This document shows positions 5,615 to 47,830 of a stretch of DNA of 64,000 bases, in pieces; positions within the stretch are counted from its first letter, which is position 1, and each line of letters starts with the position of its first letter. Source of the DNA: Candidatus Poribacteria bacterium (GTDB lineage Bacteria; Poribacteria; WGA-4E; WGA-3G); assembly GCA_965242965.1 (NCBI GenBank), contig OZ251518.1, forward strand, positions 5,344,001 to 5,408,000. Reading direction: 5' to 3'. A program made the position numbers and the translations under genes. The notes under the pieces are model-generated. The model ran no database searches, was not told the origin of the DNA, and saw nothing but the letters and a program-made list of their open reading frames with translations.

Positions 5615-8600
5615 CTATCCCTCGCCTGAGCGCAACGCAATCCCGGCTCTCTCAAACATCACTTCCAAATACGACTTCCACTCAGAAAACGGACTGGTAG
5701 AACCGTCTTCCATCTTTTCGTGCCAATTCAACCGGAGGATGTGATAATCCACCATATTCTCGGCAATCCACTCTTCTGGTTGTTCGTTTCCGAGTTTTGA
5801 ACTGTCTCGGAGAAGAATGAACGAATTGAGATGGAACGTTCGGCCCTGGGCTGCTTCTAACTGTTTCTCAAGCATCACCAGCGTCTTGTCCTCCGATTTG
5901 CGCGCCAGTCTCACCTTCGGATGATAATGGAGCGTTGTATCGTCAAGGAGGTCGCGCTGTCCCTTCGGATCGATGAAGAGGATATGTGTTACCTCCTGCG
6001 CGGTATCGATTGCCCACAGCACAAAATCCGGAAAATAGCAACCCTCGTCGCTCTCTAAATAGATGCCTATCTTGCCCACGTTTCGCATCAGATAGAATTC
6101 GTATCGTTTGTTGCGAGCGTGTCGCCGAAGATACGCCATCAAGTCTTCGACGAATTTCTTCTCGCCATTATTCAGCCGGTCTGGGGAAATTTTGACATCG
6201 TTGTTTCGGGACAGGGATGTCCCTCCTACCGGAACCGCGTTGAGTCGAGACAGGGATGTCCCTCCTACCGGAACCGCGTTGTTTCGGGACAGGGATGTCC
6301 CTCCTACCCGGACCGCCGGATCCAACAGCAGCGGCTCGTAGATGTGCCGATGATGCGAATCTAACAACAGCCTCAGCGGTTTCCAGGTCTGCGCCTCCAG
6401 GTTAGCCTGCATCTCCCTTTCGGCGAGGAATGCCTCGTATGCCTCGCGCGTCTGGAACTCCTTCGTCACCGTGTATTCGTAGATAAAATCCTTGCGCGCC
6501 AACGGTTCGTAGACGTAGTTCGCACTATTGATGTGCGCGTTGATGCGGTTCCGCAATTTACGGATGACATCAATGACTATGCGGCGATTAATCCGGTCTG
6601 TCCATGCAACCGGGTCTTCGGCAGGTTTCTGATAGCGGATTTCTGTCACTAACGCCAGAAAATCGTCTATCGTCGGCATCCGCTTGTCGGCATAGATTTG
6701 CAACTGATTCTTCTGTGCTTCGCGATGAATCACAGCGGCGAGCCCCGCACGATTCAGGTAACGGTGATACTTGTCATTGGCTTGCCGCAAATCTTCACGG
6801 ACATTCGGCGCGGGCACTGTTTTATCCGTTCGGTAATCTAATGTCTGCACGCGCCAACCTGTGATGATGCCGCTCTTCTCGGTGCCGTTATCAAGGTAGG
6901 TATACCGAATGTTTCGGTTCCTGATAAAGACGCGCTTGATGCCGCTCATCGCGCCCCCTGACGACTTGAAGATGGACAATTTGTGCCGATAATCTTCAAA
7001 GTCAATGGAGGTATTTGCATCGACTCGAAAGAAGGTAGATGTTACCGGAACCTTGAAGGTATGCATCAGCGGCACCCCTCCTGCATGCACTTCCGCGATG
7101 AATTTCTCAAGGTAACTGCGGCGTAAACTGAAAACGGTTAACGTTTCTAATCGGCGAATGTCGTCTTCCCTATCTTTTGGACGGAGGAGATAATAGTCGG
7201 GGTTGTGGGTGAGATAACGCCGTTTGCCATCGCCGCCTTTTCCGCGGAGCCGCACGCCGCGCCCGAAGATCTGGATAATCAGGTTGCCCCGAGAACTTCC
7301 CAGATTAATCAGATCGATGACAGAAAGGCGATAAGAATTCCATCCTTCGGCAAACTTGCGACTTCCGAGCAGCACATTGATAGGACTGGCTTCGTCGTCA
7401 AGGTTTTCAAAACGGAGGCGTGGGTTTGTAATCGCTTCGGTGCGCGTTTCAATGCGGGGGTTTTCAATGCTGTTGTAAAACCGCAATCCATCGCCGACGT
7501 TAATCATGCCCCACTTCTCGCCTTCGCCGTAGGAAAGGAGCAGTTCGTTATTGTTTTCGGGGTTGCGCGCGACAACGAGCGGGCCGATGATGCCATCGCC
7601 GAAAACCGAACGGAATCGTTTGCGTTCCTCGTCACGCAATGCCGCGAGAAAATCCAATACCTTCTGGATGTCCGACACCTCGTCGTTTTTCCCTTCCTGT
7701 GCCGGATTCTCTACAGTATGCCCCATAAACGCCATCAACGGACGGTGATACGTCAGATCGATGTCGGTTTCTTCACTTTTGCGGAGATTTTTGAAGGTTT
7801 GCAGCTTCTCTTCCATCACGTGAAAACATTCGTTCAGGTTATCCCAAATTTCTGTGTCGGCATCCGCGACCTGGTCTGCGGCGATGGGTTTGAAATAGTG
7901 GTCCTTCCCGTATCCGTCGCCGTAGAATCGCGCGTAGTCGTAGCGGTAGATGATGGCGTTATCATATTCCTCTTTCAGTTCCTTCGCGACGTTGTGGAAG
8001 GTGGCGGAGTATTCAAAGAGGAAGGAGGTGCCGACGTTGAGCCGACTTCGCAGTTTTCGGAACTCGCCGGATTGCTGACTGCTCAACCCGATGTGTGCTT
8101 CGTCCACCAAAATTAACCGGCGCACGCGCTCGTCTTCCGAGAGGCGGAAGTAATCGTCCGGTTTCTGGAGGAGAGCCTGCGTCGTGTCAATTGTCAACTC
8201 CAACCGATTGTTGTAAACCTCGTTGAGTTTGCGCACGTAAGGTTCTAACTCGCGCCGATGCTGTTGAATGAGGCCGGCGAGCGGCGTTGTTAAAAAGAGT
8301 TGGATGCGAAAGTCATCTTTTTCACAGAAATGGTGAAGGAATTGGAGGATGTTGAGGTGCATGACGAGGGTTTTCCCACTGCCGGTAGCCATCCAATACG
8401 CGAGCAGATTTTTGCCGTTCGGCGCGCCGGGTGCTGCCGCCGCTTCCGACAAAAAACATTCGGTGCAAAGCAACGCCAATATCTGGTAATATCGGAGTTT
8501 GAAGTTCTGCCCCGTTACGTCATTGTATTGTTCAAGGAATTCCTGAATTTTATCTAACGGTTCGATGGGCAGGCTTAATTCCCTGTCGTATCCCTCGATT

Positions 8601-8674
8601 GCGTTTTTTATAGTGTCGTCCGAGGTGTCCATTCCGTTCAGGATTTTCTGTTCGTAGGTTTGGTAGAGTGTCAT
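5615..8674 (-). CDS. Type III restriction enzyme Res subunit (DEAH helicase + nuclease)
   Basis: WMATGSGKT, LVDEAH, EYSATF, KFAEGWNS, QIFGRGVRL, YFPDFVLW...FIDPKG. Confidence 0.9.
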   Translation of the reverse strand: MTLYQTYEQKILNGMDTSDDTIKNAIEGYDRELSLPIEPLDKIQEFLEQYNDVTGQNFKLRYYQILALLCTECFLSEAAAAPGAPNGKNLLAYWMATGSGKTLVMHLNILQFLHHFCEKDDFRIQLFLTTPLAGLIQQHRRELEPYVRKLNEVYNNRLELTIDTTQALLQKPDDYFRLSEDERVRRLILVDEAHIGLSSQQSGEFRKLRSRLNVGTSFLFEYSATFHNVAKELKEEYDNAIIYRYDYARFYGDGYGKDHYFKPIAADQVADADTEIWDNLNECFHVMEEKLQTFKNLRKSEETDIDLTYHRPLMAFMGHTVENPAQEGKNDEVSDIQKVLDFLAALRDEERKRFRSVFGDGIIGPLVVARNPENNNELLLSYGEGEKWGMINVGDGLRFYNSIENPRIETRTEAITNPRLRFENLDDEASPINVLLGSRKFAEGWNSYRLSVIDLINLGSSRGNLIIQIFGRGVRLRGKGGDGKRRYLTHNPDYYLLRPKDREDDIRRLETLTVFSLRRSYLEKFIAEVHAGGVPLMHTFKVPVTSTFFRVDANTSIDFEDYRHKLSIFKSSGGAMSGIKRVFIRNRNIRYTYLDNGTEKSGIITGWRVQTLDYRTDKTVPAPNVREDLRQANDKYHRYLNRAGLAAVIHREAQKNQLQIYADKRMPTIDDFLALVTEIRYQKPAEDPVAWTDRINRRIVIDVIRKLRNRINAHINSANYVYEPLARKDFIYEYTVTKEFQTREAYEAFLAEREMQANLEAQTWKPLRLLLDSHHRHIYEPLLLDPAVRVGGTSLSRNNAVPVGGTSLSRLNAVPVGGTSLSRNNDVKISPDRLNNGEKKFVEDLMAYLRRHARNKRYEFYLMRNVGKIGIYLESDEGCYFPDFVLWAIDTAQEVTHILFIDPKGQRDLLDDTTLHYHPKVRLARKSEDKTLVMLEKQLEAAQGRTFHLNSFILLRDSSKLGNEQPEEWIAENMVDYHILRLNWHEKMEDGSTSPFSEWKSYLEVMFERAGIALRSGEG
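6199..6315 (-). repeat. 3 x 39-bp REP-derived tandem repeat in frame inside res
   Basis: Unit CGTTGTTTCGGGACAGGGATGTCCCTCCTACCGGAACCG encodes AVPVGGTSLSRNN; the same hairpin family is intergenic at ~4280, 32836 and 33158. Confidence 0.92.
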
Positions 8675-10480: not shown

Positions 10481-13400
10481 TTACGGCGATGTATCCTCCC
10501 ACACTGTGCCCGTGTCAAAATCAGCTGTGGTGATGAGATATACTTCGCGCAAATCGGGGTGCTGGAGCAAGGCATCCTGGTCTGCATCGAAGTTCACGTC
10601 TAATTGCCGCGCGCCTGCTAACCGCGGATCTGCCAAAATTTCTAGCAACTGCGCCGTATCGTCTATCTCATCGGTGACGTTGCGGAAGACTACCAAACGT
10701 TGTCCGCTTTTGACGACGCGGTAGGTTCGCGCGCTATCGGGCATTGCAAGGGGGCATCGAGACCGGGAGGTCTCTCCTACAAGAGAGGTTTCTCCTACTG
10801 CGAGATCGAAGCGCAGGCGGCGTTCAATCGGAAGCCCTTTAAGATAACAGTAAGACTCCACGATGTCCACAACGCCTTCGGTGTTGTCCTTGCCGTAGGT
10901 GATACGGTTGGAAAACGGTGCGCGCAAATCTAGCATCAGCCGAATCTGCTGCTCCTCCGGCCGATAGAGGTATTTAATAGGAACTTGCGATTGGACATCG
11001 CGCTTAGTTAGCTCGGAATTGTTAACTGGATTGCGAAATTTTGAAGGGGGGGTAAGTGTTAAGTTGTTAAGCACGTCTTCATACTGCTCTAACCGTTGAT
11101 ACTTAACGATGCCGACGGTGCCGTCAATTTCCTGTTTAGGATTCGGTTTTCCGTCGCGCCAATTTTCGGAGAACATGGCGCGGCGGATTCGTTCCTTCAG
11201 CGTGCTCTCAAAATAGTCGCCCATCTCAACGAGGATGAATTTGCGGTTGCCGTTGTCTGCCTTGTTGAGGCGGAGCACGGCGTGGCCGGTGGTGCCGCTG
11301 CCGGCGAAGAAGTCAAGCGTTGTCCCCTTTCCATCGGGTGTGACTGCCCAGACGAGTTTTTCGTATAACCCGACAGGATGGGAATAGGGGAAGTTGAGCC
11401 CCAGGGCATCCATTTTATGTTTGCCTCTCTCACCTGACGCGATGACAGAGGATAATTCACTGATAACATGGTCGCGCAAATAAACTTTTCGTTGAGGAAG
11501 TTTTGTTTCGTCCGGCCCGAAAACAATCAGATTGTTCGTTAACATTTCCTGCATTTTTTCGGGTATTCTACTCCAGCCATTCGCTGGAACGGGACACGGT
11601 TTCTGCGTGATTGGATGAATTAACGGAATGTGGAATTTGGGGTTAGCAAGGTGGCCGGGAGCTTCCATGCCGACCTCCGTATAGACGAGTCCTTCGTCGT
11701 CTATTCGCCAATAAGCCTTTTCTCCACCACTCAAATCGCGTTTGTTCCTCACCCAACTTCTAAATTCTTTGCGGCACGCCTCCGTTGGCCCGCGATGCTT
11801 TTTTACCAACGAAGCTGCCTTGTCGAGAATCAATTGGCGATTAAGGGGTTGCTTTTGAAGTTTTATGCTTCCCTTGGACTGACACACAACAAATTCGTGT
11901 TGCGTGGCTATTGTCTTTGTCCCAAAAACAGGATTTCGCTTATCCCACACGATAGTGCCTTGATTCTGCAGCGGAAGTTGATTGGACAACTGAAACAGAT
12001 TTTCATATTCGTTCTCGTCGATGTGGCACAGGAGACAGCTGCTCTCCGATGCCATCAATTGTTCGGCGAGAGATAGGCGATTTTCCATCATCGTTAACCA
12101 GCTCGCGTGCTGATAATCGTTTTTGTATAGAAAACCGCTCGTGTTGGTGTTGTAAGGCGGATCGATGTGAACGCATTTCACTTTACCGCGATATTTCTCC
12201 ATCAGCAATTCCAACGCTTGGAAGTTCTCGCTGTTGAGAAGCACCCCGGTCGTTTCCGCCTCTAAATTGTCAAACAGCGCGAGCACCCGGTCGGCAAAGT
12301 CCGCGTCAAAATGCCGCGTGTCCAGGGGGAGTGTCGGATATAACCCCTCAAGCAGGGGCAGCTGCTCGGTAATGTCAACGCCGAAGGTGTCCCGCCATTC
12401 TGCGAGTTGGGCATCATTTTCGAGAATCTGCGAGATGAGCGTTTCTCGCTGTGCGGTGTCATTTTTCGTCGCCTCGGCAATTTTCCCAAGCGAGATGAGG
12501 TAGTCTGTCGTAAGCACCTTTTTCTTCATCAGAAAGAGGCTTTTTTGGAATGTCTCCACGGTGACAAGCAGTTTGATGACTTCGTCGGTGACGCTTCGGA
12601 ACGCTTTCGCCACGGCGAACGTTGGGTTTTCGGGACTGAGGTTGAGGAGCGTGTCCAGATCGCCCAAGATGCTGTTCTGGATATAACGGCGTTGCTCAGT
12701 GAACAGGAATTCCCCGAGGTCTTTGTGGATAAAGTAGTCCGAATCCATGCCGACGAAGAACCGGTTCAGGTTTTTATCAAACGCGTGAAAGCGGTGGACG
12801 GTGGGACGCGTCTGGAGTGCCTCTTGCCTGATGGTTTTGTTTCTGCCGAGTTCGCCAAAGTCCGGGTGTTCAACGAGTTTTTTGGCATACTCCTCTAGGC
12901 TCATTCGTAAGGCGCGGATGCCTCGGATTTGGCCGCTCTGCACGTTGGTGGAATTGTCTTGCAGTTCCTTAAAAATTGGTTTTCCCGGTTCCGCGCTTTT
13001 CCGCGAGTGCGCGTAGAGATAGACATCTACGTCTTCTGGTTCGCCGAAAATCTGCGCGTTCATCTCGCGATAGAGCTCTGCCTTCGGCGTTGAGGTTTCT
13101 GCGAGGTGCAGGACAACACCCCAAGTCGGCTCAGTATCATCGGGCTGAGGCGGTTCAATTCTACCGAGGCGATAGTGCTTAAAGTCATCGCGGTTGTTAT
13201 TCTGTGCGATGCCGTGAGTCGGCTTCCCTTCCAGCCGGTATTCAATGCGTTTGCCTTCAATTTCAAAGGCGATGCTATTGAAGCCGGTGGCGGTTTTGAC
13301 GTAGTAACTATCGCGGCATTTCCAGTGGAAGAGGATATCGGTGCCGGTGTAATCCGCCTCGTCGGGGTAATCGACTTGATAGAGCGCGGTGCTTCTGTCG

Positions 13401-13861
13401 TTATAGCCGAAGTCCCCGTCGCGGTAATAGCGTTCAAAGAAGTTGTGGATGTGGTTATAGATGCCTGCGGCGAGTATCTCTTTGAGCGCGCCCGGGTCGG
13501 ATTCTAGCGGCGCGCCCAGGTCTTCGCGCTGTTTATAGGCGAGGAAACTGATGAGTTGTTGGCGATTGTCGGCGATATCGTTCAAGTAGCCGTGTTCTCT
13601 TGCGCCGCCTTCTTCCTTAACGAATTGCTTGAGTTCGCCGAGTTGGCTTTCCCAAAGGGTATCCGTGACCTCGGCGAGCGCGTTTTCAACGATGTTTGTC
13701 AATTCGTCGTCAATAAAACGGTTGACTTCGTCGCGCTTGAGTTTGAGGATGCGGAAGATGCCGAAATCCAGTTCATTCTGCGCGAAGTGGAACATCTCGC
13801 GGAGTTTGTCGCGTAGCGTGTTCAGTGCTTCGGTTGTGGGGTTCGGTTGTTGCGTTTGCAT
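10481..13861 (-). CDS. Type III RM Mod subunit (N6-adenine DNA methyltransferase), large form
   Basis: ELDFGIFRI N-terminus, SDYFIHKDL, HIDPPYN (motif IV), LDFFAGSGTT (motif I), RKFILVEMG. ATG 13861 lies just after a consensus promoter. Confidence 0.92.
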   Translation of the reverse strand: MQTQQPNPTTEALNTLRDKLREMFHFAQNELDFGIFRILKLKRDEVNRFIDDELTNIVENALAEVTDTLWESQLGELKQFVKEEGGAREHGYLNDIADNRQQLISFLAYKQREDLGAPLESDPGALKEILAAGIYNHIHNFFERYYRDGDFGYNDRSTALYQVDYPDEADYTGTDILFHWKCRDSYYVKTATGFNSIAFEIEGKRIEYRLEGKPTHGIAQNNNRDDFKHYRLGRIEPPQPDDTEPTWGVVLHLAETSTPKAELYREMNAQIFGEPEDVDVYLYAHSRKSAEPGKPIFKELQDNSTNVQSGQIRGIRALRMSLEEYAKKLVEHPDFGELGRNKTIRQEALQTRPTVHRFHAFDKNLNRFFVGMDSDYFIHKDLGEFLFTEQRRYIQNSILGDLDTLLNLSPENPTFAVAKAFRSVTDEVIKLLVTVETFQKSLFLMKKKVLTTDYLISLGKIAEATKNDTAQRETLISQILENDAQLAEWRDTFGVDITEQLPLLEGLYPTLPLDTRHFDADFADRVLALFDNLEAETTGVLLNSENFQALELLMEKYRGKVKCVHIDPPYNTNTSGFLYKNDYQHASWLTMMENRLSLAEQLMASESSCLLCHIDENEYENLFQLSNQLPLQNQGTIVWDKRNPVFGTKTIATQHEFVVCQSKGSIKLQKQPLNRQLILDKAASLVKKHRGPTEACRKEFRSWVRNKRDLSGGEKAYWRIDDEGLVYTEVGMEAPGHLANPKFHIPLIHPITQKPCPVPANGWSRIPEKMQEMLTNNLIVFGPDETKLPQRKVYLRDHVISELSSVIASGERGKHKMDALGLNFPYSHPVGLYEKLVWAVTPDGKGTTLDFFAGSGTTGHAVLRLNKADNGNRKFILVEMGDYFESTLKERIRRAMFSENWRDGKPNPKQEIDGTVGIVKYQRLEQYEDVLNNLTLTPPSKFRNPVNNSELTKRDVQSQVPIKYLYRPEEQQIRLMLDLRAPFSNRITYGKDNTEGVVDIVESYCYLKGLPIERRLRFDLAVGETSLVGETSRSRCPLAMPDSARTYRVVKSGQRLVVFRNVTDEIDDTAQLLEILADPRLAGARQLDVNFDADQDALLQHPDLREVYLITTADFDTGTVWEDTSP

Positions 13862-13897
13862 GTTTAATAGATTAGCAGATATTGCAAAAATTGTCAA
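13862..13897 (-). promoter_or_regulatory. Sigma70-type promoter giving a probably leaderless mod transcript
   Basis: Minus strand TTGACA-N17-TAATCT-N7-ATG with no SD. Confidence 0.6.
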
Positions 13898-14004
13898 GCG
13901 AACGTTTTTCATCCCGCGGCGAGAAAAATAGTTGCATCTGTCACAGGATTCTGTTATTATATTCTACAAAAGCGCGTTTCTCGGAGATTTAACCTAAAAT
14001 CCAC

Positions 14005-37604: not shown

Positions 37605-39764
37605 TTGAAAAACCTAACTTACCGCACGCTTTGCGTAATGACAACAGGGCTCGTCTTGATAGTCCTAATCTATGCCGGCACCGCCGCTGCTGTGAAAACA
37701 TCGCTGTGGGAGCAGCAACAGCGGTCGGATTTTGATGCCGGCACACCGAAAAACCTCTCGCTCACCAGCAACGGGGATGTCATGTTGGCACCCAAGATAG
37801 AGGGGTTCACGAAACTGAAAGAGAACCAGGTTTGGGCACTCGTCGAAGATTCGGCGGGGAACCTCTATGCCGCGACGGGGAACGAGGGGAAAATCTATAA
37901 AATTAGCGCGGGCGGCGATACCGCCGAGCTCTTTTACGATTCTCCCGAAGTGACTATCTATAGCCTCGCTATCGCCGCGGACGATACCCTCTACGCCGGC
38001 ACCGGACCGGATGGGCTCATTTACAAACTCACTGATGCAACCACCCCGCCACAGACGATTCTGAGCAAAGGGGATAAATATGTGTGGGCCCTGCGTTTTG
38101 ACGCAGCAGGCAACCTCTATGCCGCGACCGGCACCGATGGCAAGATTTACAAAATCACGCCGGAAGGTGAATCCAGCGTCTTGTTTGATGCCGAAGAAAA
38201 AAACATCATGGCATTGCTGATGGTGGAAGATGGGTTCTACGCCGGCAGTAGCAACAACGGCATCATCTACCGTGTCATGGCGGATGGCAAAGCAACCGTT
38301 ATCTACCAAGCGAAAGAGAAAGAGGTGCGCGATTTGGCGATGGATAGCCAAGGCAATCTTTACGCCGCTGTCGTCACCTCCGCGCCCGCGGAACCGGGCC
38401 GGGGACGGCGTTCAAACGGCCCGCCTACGCCGGCAGGCCCTCCGCCACCAGGTGGCGGCCCGCCTGAAGAGAACGCCTCTAACATCTACAAGATTCGTCC
38501 GGATGGCACGGCGATGCCTGTCTGGAATTCGCCTGAGCCGCTTATCCTCGCCATTGTGCTGGAAAGCGATACGCAAATCCTGGTCGGCACGGGTGACGAA
38601 GGGAAACTATACCGTGTCAACCTGATGAACGGTGAGTCTGTGGAGCTCGGCAAGGCATCGGCGAACCAGGTGCTGGCGATTCATCAGAGAGAGGTGGAGG
38701 GTAACCTGCGCACGCTTCTCGCTACCGGCAATCCGGGCAAACTCTTCACGTTGACGGCGACGTATGTTGAGGAAGGCACGCTGGAGTCCGAAGTCCATGA
38801 TACGCGGAGTTTGTCGCGTTGGGGTAAACTTTCGTGGGAAGGCGCGATGGCGGAAGGCACCGCGGTTGAGTTTTCTACCCGTTCCGGGAAGACGCGCAAG
38901 CCTGATGATACGTGGAGCCCCTGGTCTGACGCATTGACGACAGCGGAGGGTTCGCAGATTCCGAGCCCGGATGGACAGTATATCCAGTGGCGCGCCAAGT
39001 TCACGACGAGTGACGCGATGCAAACGCCTATCCTCAAAAAGGTTACGCTTGCTTCTGTGCAGACGAACATCGAACCGAAGTTTAGCAGCATTGAGATAAA
39101 CGACGGTAGCGGTTCCGGTGCCGACAAAGGGCGGCGCGGCTCCGGCGGCGGTGGATTGCCCCCACCCGGGATGCGTTCCGGCGGCGACAGCGGCATGTCA
39201 AACAGTTCCGCTGACGCGCCCTCCAAAAAGTGGAAAATCAGCTGGAAGGTCGAGGATGCCAATGAGGACACGCTGCAGTATACCCTCTACTACAAAGGCG
39301 TAGAGGAGACGAACTGGAAGCGCGTCAAAAAGGAATTGTCAAAAGCGAACTACGATTGGGACATTACCGCCGTTGCAGATGGCAGGTATACCCTGAAAGT
39401 CGTCGCGACGGACAAACTGAGCAATCCGGTCGGCTGGGCGAAATCGGCGGAGAAGGTTAGCCAACCCTTTGATATCGATAACACGCAGCCCGATGTCGGC
39501 GCGATTCAGGTTACGGCGAACGGCGATGGCACCTACAAAATCGCCTGTGACGTGATGGATGCGATGAGCCCTATCAAGCAAGCCGTTTACAAGATCGATG
39601 ATGACGAGAATTGGAAAGTCATCTTCCCGGGCGATGGCATCTTCGATTCCAAGTCGGAGCAGCTTCTGTTGGAGACAGGTGAGCTTGAGGCAGGCGCGCA
39701 CACCATCATTATTCAGGTGACGGATCGTGCGCAGAACATGTCTGTCGGCCGCGCCAGTTTCTAG
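37605..39764 (+). CDS. Secreted beta-propeller/Ig-like protein partnered with the S55 peptidase
   Basis: AAGGAG SD + TTG, signal peptide, repeated GNLYAATG.DGKIYKI blades, W+PWS, C-terminal DG.YT.KV.ATD beta-sandwiches. Confidence 0.75.
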   Translation: MKNLTYRTLCVMTTGLVLIVLIYAGTAAAVKTSLWEQQQRSDFDAGTPKNLSLTSNGDVMLAPKIEGFTKLKENQVWALVEDSAGNLYAATGNEGKIYKISAGGDTAELFYDSPEVTIYSLAIAADDTLYAGTGPDGLIYKLTDATTPPQTILSKGDKYVWALRFDAAGNLYAATGTDGKIYKITPEGESSVLFDAEEKNIMALLMVEDGFYAGSSNNGIIYRVMADGKATVIYQAKEKEVRDLAMDSQGNLYAAVVTSAPAEPGRGRRSNGPPTPAGPPPPGGGPPEENASNIYKIRPDGTAMPVWNSPEPLILAIVLESDTQILVGTGDEGKLYRVNLMNGESVELGKASANQVLAIHQREVEGNLRTLLATGNPGKLFTLTATYVEEGTLESEVHDTRSLSRWGKLSWEGAMAEGTAVEFSTRSGKTRKPDDTWSPWSDALTTAEGSQIPSPDGQYIQWRAKFTTSDAMQTPILKKVTLASVQTNIEPKFSSIEINDGSGSGADKGRRGSGGGGLPPPGMRSGGDSGMSNSSADAPSKKWKISWKVEDANEDTLQYTLYYKGVEETNWKRVKKELSKANYDWDITAVADGRYTLKVVATDKLSNPVGWAKSAEKVSQPFDIDNTQPDVGAIQVTANGDGTYKIACDVMDAMSPIKQAVYKIDDDENWKVIFPGDGIFDSKSEQLLLETGELEAGAHTIIIQVTDRAQNMSVGRASF

Positions 39765-39789
39765 CAATAACGAAGGCCGCCGTTTCCAC

Positions 39790-40350
39790 CGTAGCGCGAG
39801 GGCCTGTCCCTCGCGACCGTTCGGTCGAGACGAAAACCGTCCATTCACCGTAGCGCGAGGGCCCTCGGATGCCATACGCGCATCCGAGCGGGTTTCCCTC
39901 GCGATCGTCCAAGTCTGAAGCAGGATTTTCAAGATTTTCCAGATTTTCAGGATAAGAGTCGGCTGCATCGTCATGCGCGGCATGGCGGGGGACAGGCCCC
40001 CGCCCTACGGTAATAGAAACGCTTCTTCCACCGTAGCGCGAGGGCCTGTCCCTCGCGATCCCCCGGTCAAGACGAAAACCGCCCATTCACCGTAGCGCGA
40101 GGGCCTGTTCCTCGCGATCGTTGGGGTGCCAAGCACGTTTTCCTTAGCTCGCAGCATGGCGGGGGACAGGCCCCCGCCCTACGGTAACAGGACCGCCCGT
40201 TACCGTAGCGCGAGGGCCTGTCCCTCGCGATCGTTGGGGTGCCAAGCACGTTTTCCTTAGCTCGCAGCATGGCGGGGGAAACCCTCTCGCATGCGCGTGT
40301 GGCATGCGAGGGCCCCCGCCCTACGGTAAATGACCGCCCTCGCGCTACGA
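39790..40350. repeat. REP-like composite array upstream of the adhesin
   Basis: Repeated GTAGCGCGAGGGCCTGTCCCTCGCGA and GGCGGGGGACAGGCCCCCGCCCTAC, plus a CAGGATTTT tandem module. Confidence 0.9.
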
Positions 40351-40360
40351 TAACGAAAAT

Positions 40361-40410
40361 TAAAAAAAAACGAAAAAAATTTGACATTTTTTACGTATTT
40401 ATGATATTAT
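40361..40410 (+). promoter_or_regulatory. Strong sigma70-type promoter for the adhesin
   Basis: A-tract UP-like element, TTGACA (40381)-N18-TATTAT (40405) with extended TG. Confidence 0.65.
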
Positions 40411-40501
40411 ATCTATCAACACCGCTACGGTAGGAGAAATACCATATCAGGACAAGGATGTCCCGCCTACCAATAGCCAAAATATGTAGAGAGGAAAAAC
40501 A

Positions 40502-43500
40502 ATGAATATTACGACAAAATACCATAGGAAGACCCCCCCCGCCATCAACGTAAGTTAACAGATTGGATTTTCACCCCAAGTTCGCTGCCTCGCCTTGTCC
40601 TTCTGCTGTGCATCGGCATGCTTCCCTGGCTGGCAATGTCAACCACATACGCCGCAAATATAACAGTTCAACTCGCGGTATCAGGAGACACTGTGGGCGT
40701 AACCGCTGGGGCAGGAACAATAAACGCACGGACCGCGGTGAGTGGTGCGTTTACGCTCACAATCACTTACTCGGAGGAAGTCAACGGGCTCACGAGTAGC
40801 CAGTTTTCTACGTTTCCCGGTGCTGCAGTGAGTGTCACTAGCGGTCCGACGAAAAGTGCCTCCGATGCGAAAATCTGGACAGCGACGATTACCCCATCGA
40901 CAGCAGGCGATTTTCAACTTACAGTGAACAGTGTTGGACTCACACCTGCGGCAGGGAATAAGCAGATCAACTGGGCTCCGACTACACCATTCTATTACGA
41001 CGGCCCCCCGACGTTTGCTGCTGCAACCAGTGCAGTCTCTGTAGCGGAAAACACGCCTACTTCGACAAACCTCGCCACCTTGAACGCCACAGATATCAAC
41101 GGGACTACAATCAGTTATTCCATTACGGGCGGCGTAGATAAGACAAAGTTCCAGATTGCGGACACCAATAAGCTGCGGTTCAGTGCTGTTCTGGATTTTG
41201 AAAGTCCGCAAGATGTGCAGAGCACCACGCCGGTAAATGCGGCAAACAACAACGAATATATCGTTGTCGTGACTGCCTCTAGCACTGCCACCATCACCGG
41301 CGGGGTGAATCCAAACTTTGTCACGCAGATGCAGACGCTGACCGGCACGCAGACGGTGACGGTGACGGTGACGGATGTAACGGCACCGGATACGCCGAGT
41401 GCACCGACTGTGACAGCGGCGACAGCCACGCCGACGCAGTTGAGCGTGAGTTGGACCGCCCCCACTAACACCGGGCGGCCGGCGATATCGGATTACGATG
41501 TGCAGTATCGCGCCGGAACTTCCGGTGGATTCACGGATGCGGGTTTTGATGGCACCGGCACTTCAACAACGTTGACAGGTTTGACACCAGGCACAGCGTA
41601 TCAGGTGCAGGTGCGCGCGACGAATGCCGAGGGAACGAGTGCCTGGTCTAATTCTGGCACGGCGACTACGGCGGCGAACGCTGCGCCGATGTTCACGAGT
41701 AGCACAACGGCATTCGATGTTGCAGAGAATAGCACCACGGTAACGACTGCCACCGCCACCGATAGTGATAGCGGCGATGCTGTGAGTTATGCGATTAGCG
41801 GTGGTGCGGATAGCGCGAAGTTCTCCATCAATACGTCTAGCGGCGCGGTGACATTCGCCTCGGCACCGGATTTTGAAGATGCGCAAGATGTCGTGAGTGC
41901 CGATCCGGCAAATGCGGCGGGGAATAACGAGTATATCGTGACAGTCACGGCATCGAGTGGGACAGGTGGCCGTGCCCTGTCGGTGAGCAAGACGCTCACT
42001 GTCACGGTGACGAATGAGACTGAGGTGCCGTCTGCGCCGACTTCACTGTCGGTGACAGCGGATGATACCACGCCGACAGTGTTGAGCGTGAGTTGGACTG
42101 CGCCGACAAACACCGGCAAGCCGGCAATAACAGGTTACGCTGTGCAGTATCGCGCCGGGACTTCTGGGAGTTTCACGAATCATCCGCACCCCGACACCAC
42201 CACGGAAGCAACGATAACCGGGTTAACGCCGAATACAGCGTATCAGGTGCAGGTAAGTGCGACGAATGCGGACGGCACCGGGGCCGCGGCTACTGAAAGC
42301 GCGACCACGGCGGCGAATGTTGCACCGGTTTTCGACAGTGCCGTGACAACGTTCAGTGTTGCGGAGAATAGCACTACGGTGACAACCGCCTCGGCGACGG
42401 ATGCGGATACGGTGGTTACCGATGTGGTGAGTTATGCGATTAGCGGTGCGGATAGCGCGAAGTTCTCGATTAATGCGTCTAGCGGCGTGGTGACATTCGC
42501 CTCTGCACCGGATTATGAAACGCCGCAAGATGTCGAGAGTGCCGATCCGTCAAATGCGGCGGAGAATAACGAGTATATCGTGACAGTCACGGCATCGAGT
42601 GGTACCGGTGGCCGTGCACTATCGGTGAGCAAGACGCTCACCGTCACCGTTACGGATGTAACAACGGAGGCACCTGGCAAACCTACGCCGCAAGTCACTG
42701 TGACGACAACGACGAGTGTTACCATCAGTTGGAATCCGCCGACGAACACGGGCCCGGCGATTACGGATTACGATGTGCAGTATCGCGCCGGGACTTCTGG
42801 GGTTTTCACGAGTCATGCGCACACCGGCACCGGCACGACAGCAACGATAAGCAGTTTGACTTCGGGGACAGATTACCAGATTCAGGTGCGCGCGACGAAT
42901 GACGAGGGCACTGGCTCCTGGTCTGACGCAATTACGGGGACCCCGCAGGTGAACGTTGCCCCGGTTTTCAGTAGTAGTGCCACGGCATCGGTTGCGGAGA
43001 ATACGGCGGCGAGTGCTGTCGTGCTTACCGTGAGTGCTTCGGATGGCGATGCGCAAGACAGTGTCACGGGGTATACGCTGAGCGGCACGGATAGCGGTGC
43101 GTTCACGTTTGATAGTAGCAGCCGTGTGTTGAAGTTTCGCGCGTCACCGGATTATGAGAATTCGACAGATGTTGCGCATACGTCGCCTGCGCCGACGGAT
43201 GCGGCGAATAACAATGTCTATATCGTTTTGATTACTGCCACAAGTGGTTCGGGTGCGCGTGTGTTGTCAACGACGCAGCGGGTGGCGATTACCGTGGATG
43301 ATGTGATCGAGCCGCCGTCGCGCCCGCCGACCTTTACGGTAGACTCGGCGATTGCGACCCCGACGAAACTCGGTCTGAGTTGGGGTGCGCCTTCGACGAC
43401 AGGCAAGCCGGCGATATCGGGTTACGATGTGGAATATCGCGCCGGGACTTCCGGTACGTTCCTAGATGCGGGTTTCAGTGGCACTGGCACTTCCATGACG

Positions 43501-46500
43501 CTGGCAAATTTGACGCAAGGGACGCTGTATCAGGTTCGGTTGCGTGCGAAGAATGCCGAGGGTATGAGTGGCTGGTATGATGGCAGTGGGACAACTGCGC
43601 CGAACGTTGCACCGATGTTCAGCAGTGGCACAACGGCGTTCCCTTTGAAAGAGAACCGCCAGGCTGTGGGGACAACGGATGCTACCGATGCGGATACGGT
43701 GACTAACGATGTGGTCCGTTATGCGATTAGTGGTGGCGCGGATGGCGCGAAGTTTTTGATTCATGCCGCGACAGGGGCGTTGACATTCATCTCTGCACCG
43801 GATTATGAAACGCCGCAAGACGTGCAAAGCACTGCGCCGGCGAATGCTGCTGGAAATAATGAGTATGTCGTGGTAGTTGAAGCGCAGAGTGGTGCTGGCG
43901 AGCGTCAACTCGCCGTGCAGAAAACGCTCGTGGTGACTGTGGAGAATGTGGATGGCCCTGGAAAGCCGGCTGCCCCGCAAGTGACAGCGATGACACCGAC
44001 TTCGGTGAGCATTAGTTGGAGTGCGCCGGACACGGGGTTGGAGATATCGGATTACGATGTGCAGTATCGGCAAGGGAGGAGTGGTGCATGGAGTGCCTGG
44101 CCTCATACTGGCATCGGCACGACAGCGACGCTCACCGGGTTGACACAGCATGCGGTTTATGAGATTCAGGTGCGCGCGACGAATTCGGAGGGCTCGGGGC
44201 CCTGGTCGGATGCAGTCACGGCGGTACCGCAGGATAACAGGCCGCCGGTGTTCAGCGGTGATACTGTGGTGTTCACGGTGGCAGAAAATACCCCGGCGCG
44301 CACGCCTGTTGTCACTGTCGTTGCGGTTGACGGAGACCCGGCCGATGAAATTACGGGGTATACGCTGAGCGGGACAGATAGCGGTGCCTTCACGTTGGAT
44401 GCGCGCAGCGGTGTCTTGCGGTTTCGTGTATCGCCAGATTTTGAGAATCCGTTAGATGTTGCGCATACGTCACCTGCGCCGGCAGATGCGGCGGGCAACA
44501 ACACCTATATTGTCTTCGTCACGGCGACGAGTGGGACAGGCGGGCGCGCGCTGACAAAGACGCAGCGTCTCACGATTACCGTTACCGCTGTCGACGATAT
44601 GTCCGTCGGGCTGGTGCTTGAGAGTTCGGTTGCGCTGACAGAAGGAAGACGCGTGACAAGTGAACCGAGTTGGACAGTGACGTTCGATTTCTCGATGCCC
44701 CTGGCCGCCGTTGGAGATGGGGCGTTTAGCGTCTCAGATATCAATGTCAGCGTCAGTGGTGGCGCGGGGACAGCGACGTTCGGCGAGTTGACCCGTGCTG
44801 AACCGGCGGATGCGCGTTATACGGTGCCTGTCACCGTGAGCGCGGAAGGCACCTACACGTTCCAAGTGAAAAGCGGCAGTGTTGCCACGGCCACCGGCGA
44901 TACTTATGGCGGTGCCGCCTCGCCGTTGGTGGTGATTTACAATACGCCGCCGGTGATAACCGATGTCACCGTGGTGCCGCCCCCGGCGACAGGGTATATC
45001 GTGGGGAGCGAACTGTCCCTTGAGTTGACATTTGACGATGACAATGTGGATATCCCTGCGAACGTGGATATTACAAATCGGCCGTATATCGTCCTCTATT
45101 TAGGTGAGCGCACGGCGGCGAATCAGCGGCGCGCCTATTGGCAGTCGGCGCGGGATGCGAATTCCACCATTGTCACGTTTGCCTATGAAGTGCAATCAGG
45201 TGATGTTGCGAACGTGGTCCATTGGGAGCCGCGTCTCGTCGTGCCGGAGACTGCACCCATCACGAATGGCGTGAGCGCGATAGTGACAGGCGAGCCAGAT
45301 GACACCCGCGGGGTGCCCGTATCGGATACTGCAGGTATCGTCGTGTTTCCGGGGGAGACGACGCAACCTGCGCCGGGTCAGCCGCAGGAGCCGGTTGCGC
45401 CGTTAACGCAGGAAGTGCCCGTGCTGGGCGCGCCTGTAGTATTTCTGCCGCCAGAGACAGTGCAGCCTGTGAAACCAACGCAGATTTCGCGCACACCGTT
45501 GATTTTCAACGAACTCGGCAACGGTGCCGCGGGTGCCAACGAGTGGCTGGAACTCCGGAACGTCACGGCGGAGGCGGTGCCGCTGAAAAACTGGGGTATC
45601 AGCATCGTCACCGATGCGAAGAAAGTAGACAAACCTTTGGTGAGATTTCCATCGGATGCGGCGTTTAGTGTGCCGCCGAATGGCATTTTGCTCATCACGC
45701 GGCGGTCCCCGGAGAAAACACGGCTTGCAGGCGGGATTGACATCGCGAACCCCGGCAAGACAGGTGCAGTGCATCACTATTTCGTCGCGCCTGAGTTGAC
45801 GCTGCCCGATGATGGACAGTTCCTCTTGATTCTTCGCAATGCGAAGGGGAAACTCGGCAAAGGCGAGAATGTGATTGATGTCGCTGGCGGCGGCGGTCCC
45901 GATACGGATGCCTTTATCGCCGACAAAGGCGACGCGTTCCAGACAGACATCTGGCCCTTGCAAGCGACAGCGCATCCCCGTGAGGACACCGAGGGAACTC
46001 TTGGAGAAGGCAAAGTATGGCGACGCGCGAAGGCGGATAGCGTCGGATACCACAAAGATGCTTGGACACAAGCCGCCTACACCGGAGTCGGCTATGACAG
46101 GGTGACAGAGACCTCACCGGCGACAGCCGGCACACCCGGCTATCCCAACGATGCCGTGAAACCGGTGGCAGCCACACCGAAGGGCAGTGTCACCTTCAGT
46201 GAACTCATGGTGGATTCAGCCGGCGGCAAACTGCCGCAGTGGATTGAGTTGTATAATGCCTCCAAAACGGAAGCACTGAACCTCAACCGCTGGAAACTGG
46301 AAATCCAGAATGTGGATTCTGAGGACTTAGTCGGCAGACCTGTTGTCACCTTAACGCTGAAGGAAAAAATAATTCAACCGAATCAGACGCTCTTAATTGT
46401 CGCGGGGGATGCGCGTGCATCGTCAGCAGATGTCTTTCCTGCCGCGCGCGTCTACAACCTGCTCACCCTGCACGAGAAGAATCTGCGCATCAAAACGGCG

Positions 46501-47172
46501 CGGGATACCTTCTTAAGTGCCGAGGGGTTCACGTTGAAACTGCGGGATAGCGACGGGCAGTTAGTGGACGAAGTCGGGAACACCGATGGAAATCGCAGGA
46601 CGCGCGATGCGCCGGCATGGCAATTCCCGTTCGCCCCGGTTGAATCGGGACGGAGTTCCCTGATTCGGCGTTATGACAAAGGGACTGCCGAAGATGGCAA
46701 GGCGCGAGAAGGTTGGGTGCTGGCGGCGAACATCACTCGTTTCAGTGCTGATGTCGCTTATGGTCACAAGGACGACAAAGGCACGCCGGGATACCGTGAA
46801 GGCGGCGCATTGCCAGTGGAGTTATCCCGTTTCTCGATGACGCGCAATGAAGCCGGTGCGGTTGTGTTGACATGGACGACCGAATCGGAAGTCGACAACG
46901 CGGGATTCAACCTGCGCCGCAGTTTGGAACGCGATAGCGGTTTCACGCTTTTGAATTCCGCCTTAATCGCCGGTGCCGGCACGACGGGTGAGCGTCAGAC
47001 GTATACGTTCACGGATACGTCTGCGAAACCGGGGGTTGAGTATTACTATCAGATTGAAGAAGTTGCGTCTGATGGTAAGCCGGCGACGTTAGCGATGCGT
47101 CTGTTGCGCGGTTCCGTGTCTGCGTCAAATCGGATGCTGACCACGTTCGGTGAAGTGAAACAGCAAAAATAG
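40502..47172 (+). CDS. Giant surface adhesin (Ig-like, 6 cadherin alternating with 5 FN3, 2 lamin-tail-like domains); start/signal peptide out of frame at a C8 tract
   Basis: Cadherin motifs (VAEN, D.D, PD(F/Y)E), FN3 motifs (SWTAP, YDVQYR, Y.VQVRATN), LTD-like FNEL..EWLELRN / FSELM..QWIELYN. SD+ATG at 40502 joins the 40618 frame only if C8 (40533-40540) becomes C9 or C6. Confidence 0.85.
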
Positions 47173-47185
47173 CCGTTCTTCTCAC

Positions 47186-47830
47186 CGTAGCGCGGGGGCC
47201 TGTTTCCCGCGATCTCTCGGTTGAGACGAAAACCGCCGCTGCCACCGTAGCGCGATGGCCTGTCCTCCGCGCAGGGGCTCCTCCTCTGTAGTTCAGGATC
47301 GCCTGATCCTGAACTGTTTGCGATCAGGCGATCGCAAACTACAGAACGGAATAACGCAAACCGCCTGTTCACCGTAGCGCGGGGGCCTGTCCCTCGCGAT
47401 CGTCCAAGTCTGAAGCAGGATTTTCAAGATTTTTCAAGATTTTCAGGATAAGAGTCTGCTGCATCGTCGTGCACGGCATGGCGGGGGACAGGCCCCCGCC
47501 CTACGATAACAGAACCGCCTTTTCACCGTAGCGCGAGGGCCTGTCCCTCGCGAGGCTCCGGTCGAGACGAAAACCGCCGCCTCCACCGTAGCGCGAGGGC
47601 CTGTCCCTCGCGATCGTTCAAGTGTCTGAAGCAGGATTTTCAAGATTTTTCAAGATTTTCAGGATAAGAGAGCTGCTGCATCGTCGTGCGCGGCCTGGCG
47701 GGGGACAGGCCCCCGCCCTATGGTAAGAGAGGCCGTTCTGGATACCGTAGCGCGGGGGCCTGTCCCCCGAGATCCCCCGGTCAAGACAAAAACCGCCGCT
47801 GCCACCGTATCGCGAGGGCCTGTCCTTCCG
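47186..47830. repeat. REP-like composite array downstream of the adhesin
   Basis: Same modules as 39790-40350 in the same orientation; CAGGATTTT block at ~47415 and ~47631. Confidence 0.9.

Follow-up and report, generated by a model that had tools for sequence, protein, structure and literature searches.

A C8 run one base short of the reading frame of a giant putative adhesin gene in a Candidatus Poribacteria bacterium: a probable default-off slipped-strand switch belonging to a genome-wide family

How is a giant secreted protein made from a gene whose Shine–Dalgarno-led start codon opens a frame of only 18 codons, ending just beyond a run of eight C residues? The question is raised by a locus in a window of 64,000 nucleotides, by which we mean the whole stretch of DNA analysed, from Candidatus Poribacteria bacterium (assembly GCA_965242965.1, contig OZ251518.1). 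The window lies at C1:5344001–5408000 of its own genome (G000; 5.70 Mb, two contigs), and the genus was compared over three genomes, G000, G001 and G002. A preliminary description had proposed phase variation of a cadherin/FN3 adhesin in a sponge symbiont. Parts of the stretch are present in sponge metagenomes, and their presence among its carriers supports the symbiont assignment; in the accessible part of an earlier study, cadherin and fibronectin III genes are described as enriched in sponge symbionts (PMC8163846). The domain content of the 40618..47172 product (cadherin, FN3 and LTD) agrees with that description, while its role as a surface adhesin is what this composition suggests. REP-like palindromic repeat clusters with GTAG flank the gene at 40000–40350 and 47173–47300, and a related repeat class, with C runs of 1–9 before TTCAYCGTAG, occurs genome-wide.

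Table 1. Features of the putative adhesin locus and of the second run of the family in the window
Feature	Position	Strand	Remarks
Second family member, C7 inside DNA methylase ORF 10481-13912	11046..11052	-	In frame
Sigma-70-type promoter TTGACA-18-TATTAT, extended -10 TG	40381..40410	+	Predicted, 11/12 consensus matches
Shine–Dalgarno GAGAGGA	40489..40495	+	6 nt 5' of ATG; GGAG/AGGAG at the same place in homologues
18-codon leader frame with the gene's probable true start, TAA end in the C8 state	40502..40558	+	Kept in 5/5 homologues
C8 run, candidate switch, one C short of the adhesin frame	40533..40540	+	C8 in 2/2 bridging contigs
Conserved 3' flank of the module, TCAAC-N4-GTTAAC, containing the leader stop	40541..40559	+	Family consensus TTNCTHHACANNNGTTAA
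Predicted remainder of signal peptide in the adhesin frame: basic stretch, LVLLLCIGMLPWLA core, TYA end	40543..40653	+	Hydropathy, strain SNPs, alignment
2,184-aa ORF, probable adhesin	40618..47172	+	6 cadherin and 5 fn3 stretches, lamin-tail domain, C-terminal LTTFGEVK tail

The predicted promoter has its −35 element TTGACA at 40381–40386 and TGATATTAT at 40402–40410; four promoter-like sites were found in 39700–41000, as compared with 0.8 in shuffled sequences, and this promoter is kept in two paralogues, with the −35 element also present in the G001 homologue. The spacer carries T6 at 40387–40392 here (18 nt) and T5 in both paralogues (17 nt), and many aligned contigs are one T short at this place, which may derive from paralogous promoters. 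The leader, MNITTKYHRKTPPAINVS, extends from ATG 40502 to TAA 40556–40558, and TAG 40525–40527 closes the adhesin frame upstream (Table 1). Every coordinate given in the preliminary description for the promoter, the GAGAGGA element, both stops, the start codon and the C8 run was reproduced, except that the two frames, said to overlap only around the run, actually overlap over 40528–40555 (28 nt). When the frame was computed for different run lengths, 6, 9 and 12 gave one ORF of 2,222–2,224 aa (2,223 aa for C9), while 7, 8, 10 and 11 gave only 16–19 aa (18 aa for C8). A one-base change at C8 toggles the full reading frame, in agreement with the proposal that one extra C, or two fewer, restores the adhesin frame. 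The Shine–Dalgarno element, ATG, basic leader, C run and LLLC core are all kept in two G000 paralogues and in the G001 and G002 homologues.

The C8 run at 40533 is followed by TTAA at offset 14. Across G000, which has 224 runs of at least seven C on both strands (118 of them outside REP-like repeats), TTAA was found at offset 14–15 after 44 of 213 C7–C9 runs, with about one expected, and after 2 of 588 C6 runs. The run with TTAA occurred 44, 11 and 25 times in the three genomes of the genus and 9, 13 and 12 times in G004, G009 and G043 (controls 0–2 in both sets), and 0–3 times in most of the 61 genomes searched. Among proteins with an LTTFGEVK-like tail, found with a regular expression, 23 of the 27 with at least 1,000 aa lie behind a motif run, compared with 1 of 70 smaller ones (Fisher p 4e-17); other large secreted genes with 5' poly-C, which the preliminary description had proposed looking for, do exist. 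What the first reading missed is that the run at 40533 belongs to a module that recurs across the genome and has a conserved 3' flank; this module is present at dozens of surface-protein and restriction–modification genes of G000. The 16-nt exact flank is common to unrelated genes of opposite coding orientation, including the methylase of the window, and shared flanks of at least 8 nt were found in four pairs among 40 family representatives, as compared with 0.07 expected.

Several members of the family have features of their own. The methylase at 10481–13912 is of the N6/N4 DNA type and is followed by a ResIII/DEAD gene (5615–8674); the first 16 nt of the 3' flank of its C7 run (11046–11052) are identical to those of the unrelated G-coding locus C1:4355324. 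At C1:734580 of G000 a motif run, which seems to be in frame, heads an open frame some 7,000 codons long, and the G002 homologue L046 has a second C8, in frame, in its mature region, together with a Y1-transposase-like gene about 1 kb upstream. In G043, runs of 15–28 C stand in the same setting (L082–L093), where the flank keeps GTTAA without the left half of the consensus. No run of at least eight C was found in six relatives (G003, G011, G013, G016, G019 and G047), which reflects either absence of the system or an assembly effect. Metagenome contigs scanned with the exact pattern gave 0 matches, and protein scans gave one weak metagenome locus and two genome loci, one of them relevant; L107 shows the leader and C9 arrangement of L048 and was not counted as a further case.

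We determined the frame state of the 34 C runs of G000 that are followed by at least 300 codons, of which 19 have a Shine–Dalgarno-led ATG, 10 do not and 5 are internal. Among the 19, 14 need one more C, 4 are in frame and 1 needs one fewer; two are a methylase pair (one +1, one −1), and the 17 secreted genes comprise 13 that need +1, 4 in frame and none that needs −1. The fusion-type loci of G001 and G002, chosen by the TTAA pattern except for L046, gave 7, 2 and 0, respectively. In the genus, therefore, all 20 off copies of secreted genes need one more C (13 in G000, 7 in G001/G002), a count whose nominal p of 0.0005 is an overstatement because the copies form about 12 clusters with partly shared leader ancestry, and six copies of the same class are in frame. 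Restriction–modification-type genes with a G-strand run in an A-run-T context (n=26) comprise 12 that need −1, 9 that need +1 and 5 in frame; the secreted genes of the genus are off in one direction only, and these genes in both. Outside the genus, the other direction occurs at L090 of G043 and L112 of G009. All five close homologues need one more C, at run lengths of 8, 9, 9, 9 and 10, and in most copies the leader ends five codons beyond the run.

Copies with near-identical flanks were found in different states. In G002, L035 (C8) is off and L037 (C9) is on; in G001, L047, L050 and L052 (C7) are off and L057 (C8) is on; in G000, 4262531 (C8) is on and 2589655 (C10) is off. Within one methylase family, G7 is on while G8 and G9 are off. 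Since these pairs differ in both length and state, run length varies on the DNA in this family, the central feature of phase variation. The comparison of orthologues proposed in the preliminary description reveals variation in run length and on/off state among paralogues and homologues.

Taken together, we consider it probable that the C8 locus is a slipped-strand phase-variation switch that is off by default. This reading starts from what was observed, that is, the anatomy, the frame arithmetic, the conservation of the break, the on/off pairs among paralogues and the membership of a family. It is also favoured by the restriction–modification-type runs, which with the A-run-T context are off in both directions and without it are mostly in frame, by the long C runs of G043 and by the giant tail-motif proteins found behind motif runs. 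In the C8 state, translation would begin at ATG 40502, enter the run after ten codons and end five codons further on at TAA 40556, leaving the adhesin absent. A slip of the DNA polymerase that adds one C (C9) would join the leader to the signal-peptide core, and the 2,223-aa cadherin/FN3/LTD surface protein would then be made and exported in the descendants of that cell until the run slips again; slippage at this locus, its rate and the export of the protein are the steps that we infer. In the accessible part of a study of C. jejuni, base gain was commoner than base loss at G8 and G9 tracts, by which the one-short state would be the closest to on (PMC3401435).

Of the phase variation originally proposed, the frame break and the on/off pairs of the family stand, whereas the locus itself was seen as C8 only, in 2 of 2 bridging contigs, which counts against it. 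The 20 of 20 off copies needing +1 also count against phase variation, because random slippage should give the other off state too. mutS was found in 21 of 21 genomes and mutL in G000, with both genes intact here, so that C7–C9 runs should be fairly stable, and loss of mismatch repair was rejected as a candidate. By analogy, rates like those in the accessible part of the C. jejuni report would favour lengths of 9–10, as opposed to the many C7 copies seen (PMC3401435). The cumulative skew of the genome gave no usable origin for a leading/lagging comparison.

A doubtful alternative as the main route is programmed recoding, in which a gene one C short is the maintained state and a small amount of adhesin is produced in all cells, either by addition of a C by RNA polymerase or by a ribosome slipping back one base on C CCC CCC; DNA slips, with which recoding can coexist, would then give only occasional fully-on copies. 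Site and direction of the shift are kept over three species and among paralogues despite changed length and flanks, as in the clusters of programmed frameshifting and transcriptional realignment described in the accessible part of a survey in which a conserved shift site is a criterion (PMC3711429). Also in favour are the uniform +1 direction, weakened though it is by shared leader ancestry, a leader that in most copies stops five codons past the run, the intact gene body, and the five strain SNPs located from the run to ATG 40618, three of which are synonymous. However, run length is not fixed (8–10 among homologues), the six in-frame copies fall within the same class, and no conserved 3' structure was found (fold z −0.5 to +1.3 over 70 nt in five homologues). 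In addition, the other direction is used outside the genus at the two loci named above, and the flank also lies antisense in restriction–modification genes, where action on that mRNA is impossible. As compared with the clusters in the accessible part of that survey (PMC3711429), the tract is poly-C and not poly-A/T, its length varies, in-frame copies exist and no stimulator accompanies it; the locus thus departs from programmed frameshifting in two marks, a fixed site without in-frame alleles and a stimulator, and shares one, while at the sequence level it appears to carry the marks of the SSR contingency class.

There is little likelihood that ATG 40618 is the true start, or that the gene is decaying, with the leader and run incidental or only modulating initiation. 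The Met at 40618 is aligned and invariant in 5/5 homologues, with the G002 row gapped beside it, but so are the residues T, L, L, L and C upstream of it, and the hydropathy peak of 2.3 (VLLLCIGMLPW) belongs to a core that begins 5' of this codon. No Shine–Dalgarno element was found in the 27 nt 5' of ATG 40618, the in-frame paralogues use the upstream ATG, and the run carries the family flank. The preliminary description had already noted that a start at 40618 would have no Shine–Dalgarno element and would lack most of the signal, and this held, the hydrophobic core lying partly upstream. Among the strain differences listed between the run and 40618, 3/5 are synonymous in the adhesin frame and 2/5 conservative; on hydropathy and alignment, the region is supported as behaving like signal-peptide coding sequence, with the putative TYA cleavage site placed by eye. 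Loose contig ends at 40603 and 40655 in three runs carry the 5' sequence of paralogues joined there, representing either paralogous reads or exchange of a 5' module.

It is more improbable still that the leader peptide acts as an attenuator, in which the position where ribosomes stop decides whether transcription continues. Many family members have leaders of 48–59 codons without direct fusion, as such a device might, but the shift here fuses directly into the signal peptide, and no terminator-like site was found on the plus strand in 39700–41000.

A missing homopolymer base is a typical assembly error, and the two-contig assembly is presumably long-read. Two contigs from other haplotypes bridge the run (X1, with 5 other letter differences, and X5, with 35), and both read C8, contrary to a true C9; they were drawn from the contigs of four runs, which drop rare variants, and among the differences listed there no indel was found at 40533–40540. 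In X2 and X3 the contigs break near the run. Four homologues, with C9, C9, C9 and C10, are each exactly one C short, so the off state is shared by two other genomes. Among G-strand coding runs of G000, 10 of the 12 that lack the A-run-T context are in frame, as compared with 5 of the 26 that have it, so homopolymers are not miscalled wholesale, and the G-strand runs are off in both directions. These comparisons support a biological frame break, and that the true sequence is C9 is the least credible of the explanations weighed here.

The module itself was characterized by aligning 123 sites in 45 clusters from G000 and relatives, all selected on TTAA, which gave the consensus WWNA-Cn-TTNCTHHACANNNGTTAA, in which 91% of sites have G at −1, 80% T at −10 and 71% A at −7; the copy in the window reads GA-C8-GCCATCAAC-GTAA-GTTAAC. 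The 45 clusters showed no covariation and little conservation beyond the consensus. In C-coding genes TAA serves as the stop codon of the leader, five codons past the run, and this role could account for some of the flank. A flank matrix built from 18 C-coding and leader sites alone was then applied to G-coding genes: on the non-coding strand, 5 of 11 independent clusters scored p<0.001 each against a background of 3,298 flanks, while 6 of 11 did not, and the same five had p of at most 0.002 against 641 AT-rich flanks. Homologues in G002 and G005 keep the flank antisense. As judged from the matrix, the flank is independent of the coding strand, lying antisense in 5 of 11 restriction–modification clusters.

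Three of the G-coding loci carry the run and flank in stretches missing from paralogues. One stretch is of 10–21 aa (as compared with five paralogues) and one of 9 aa (as compared with the closest paralogue only); at the third locus, L101 (G000 C1:950200–950300), a unit of about 40 bp comprising run and flank lies between direct repeats of about 30 bp in a restriction–modification-type gene. At two other loci, TTAA overlaps a Leu-Asn present in paralogues too, so that growth in place and insertion are equally possible. General target-site duplication was dropped with one clear case among 118 loci. A REP/RAYT origin was rejected with no Y1_Tnp match in G001, G009 and G015 and no enrichment of the TCTGTAG repeat in G015, and copying by a reverse transcriptase with no RVT_1 match in G000, G001, G002 and G015; in G009 (C1:1416346–1420737), a motif run is followed about 3.7 kb downstream by a reverse transcriptase of 356 aa. 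The flank was also discarded as an RNA hairpin (pairing equals column expectation over 45 clusters, with no raised palindromicity in general), as a general transcription-factor site (the dyad away from runs is not enriched, 32 vs 32) and, after inspection by eye, as a promoter on either strand. A fixed-distance cutter of the BaeI type was weakened as a candidate by GTTAAG lying 6–16 nt from the run in G009 and being mostly missing in G015; the spacing in G009 means that it is not fixed family-wide.

The flank is specific to the genome. Before unselected runs of at least eight, GTA was found in 30/43 cases in G015 and in 0/118, 1/86 and 2/100 in G000, G002 and G009 (G015 vs G000, Fisher p 1e-22 with paralogues not removed), while TKA was found in 0/43 in G015 and in 34/118, 26/86 and 37/100, respectively. 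In G015, 36 of the 43 runs were examined, and their consensus is GTA-C9-WCT whichever strand is coding. Coding runs preceded by TA number 27, of which 21 carry a surplus base, 3 lack one and 3 fit the frame; three signature-free runs are in frame. In homologous genes, runs at the same protein site bear the signature of the host genome (L144 and L143, compared with G000 379132 and 2200005), and in one gene the run is C-coding in G015 (L154) and G-coding in G009 (L111). Read on the G strand, the run is preceded by A and followed by T in nearly all members, which resembles the GnT and AC3+ contexts in the accessible parts of two reports that flanks change mutability at G runs (PMC12344412, PMC13250602). 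By that analogy, this context would be a protein-free explanation for those positions only; as far as their accessible parts go, these reports measure substitutions at G3–G5 with two bases on each side, and leave the 19-nt flank and its change between genomes unexplained (PMC12344412, PMC13250602).

A strand-independent, genome-specific flank is a hint that some factor, or a process of copying, may shape the switches. We suggest, as a tentative idea that we hold to be improbable as it stands, that a dedicated Poribacteria system installs or maintains slippage switches via a sequence-specific factor or a copying process, the C8 run at 40533 being one installed switch. Such a system would write or select, next to poly-C, a signature particular to each genome (TTA-Cn-TTCA...GTTAA in G000, GTA-C9-WCT in G015), would act on either coding strand, including at one and the same position in homologous genes, and would make short runs switchable despite intact mismatch repair.

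Adhesin genes of Neisseria, Bordetella and Helicobacter have poly-C/G tracts at their 5' end, usually described as locus-specific, and as in those genes the tract here lies between the start codon and the signal-peptide core. C. jejuni is not known to have mismatch repair, unlike the uncultured sponge symbiont with its intact mutS and mutL; also unlike C. jejuni, this symbiont has a shared, genome-specific flank at unrelated loci, and the off copies of its secreted genes are always one C short. The C. jejuni loci cj1139, cj0031 and capA, in the accessible part of the report, likewise have a G/C run of 7–11 bases within the coding sequence of surface and restriction–modification genes, one-base on/off changes and many loci per genome (PMC3401435). 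In a literature that included few subscription papers, we found no paper linking Poribacteria to phase variation or poly-C switches, and none on shared flanks of contingency loci. The single locus is probably a new member of a known contingency-locus class, and what is new is the strand-independent, genome-specific signature.

If phase variation operates here, a main sponge symbiont keeps most of its giant surface proteins off, and likewise many restriction–modification genes, as a form of bet-hedging, a strategy known mostly from pathogens. Gene callers truncate such proteins, and their signal peptides are lost. By the usual view, each homopolymer switch arises at its own locus with no helper involved. 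Of greater importance than the bet-hedging is the strand-independent, genome-specific flank, and the fact that this shared signature differs between species makes a helper or copying route directly testable.
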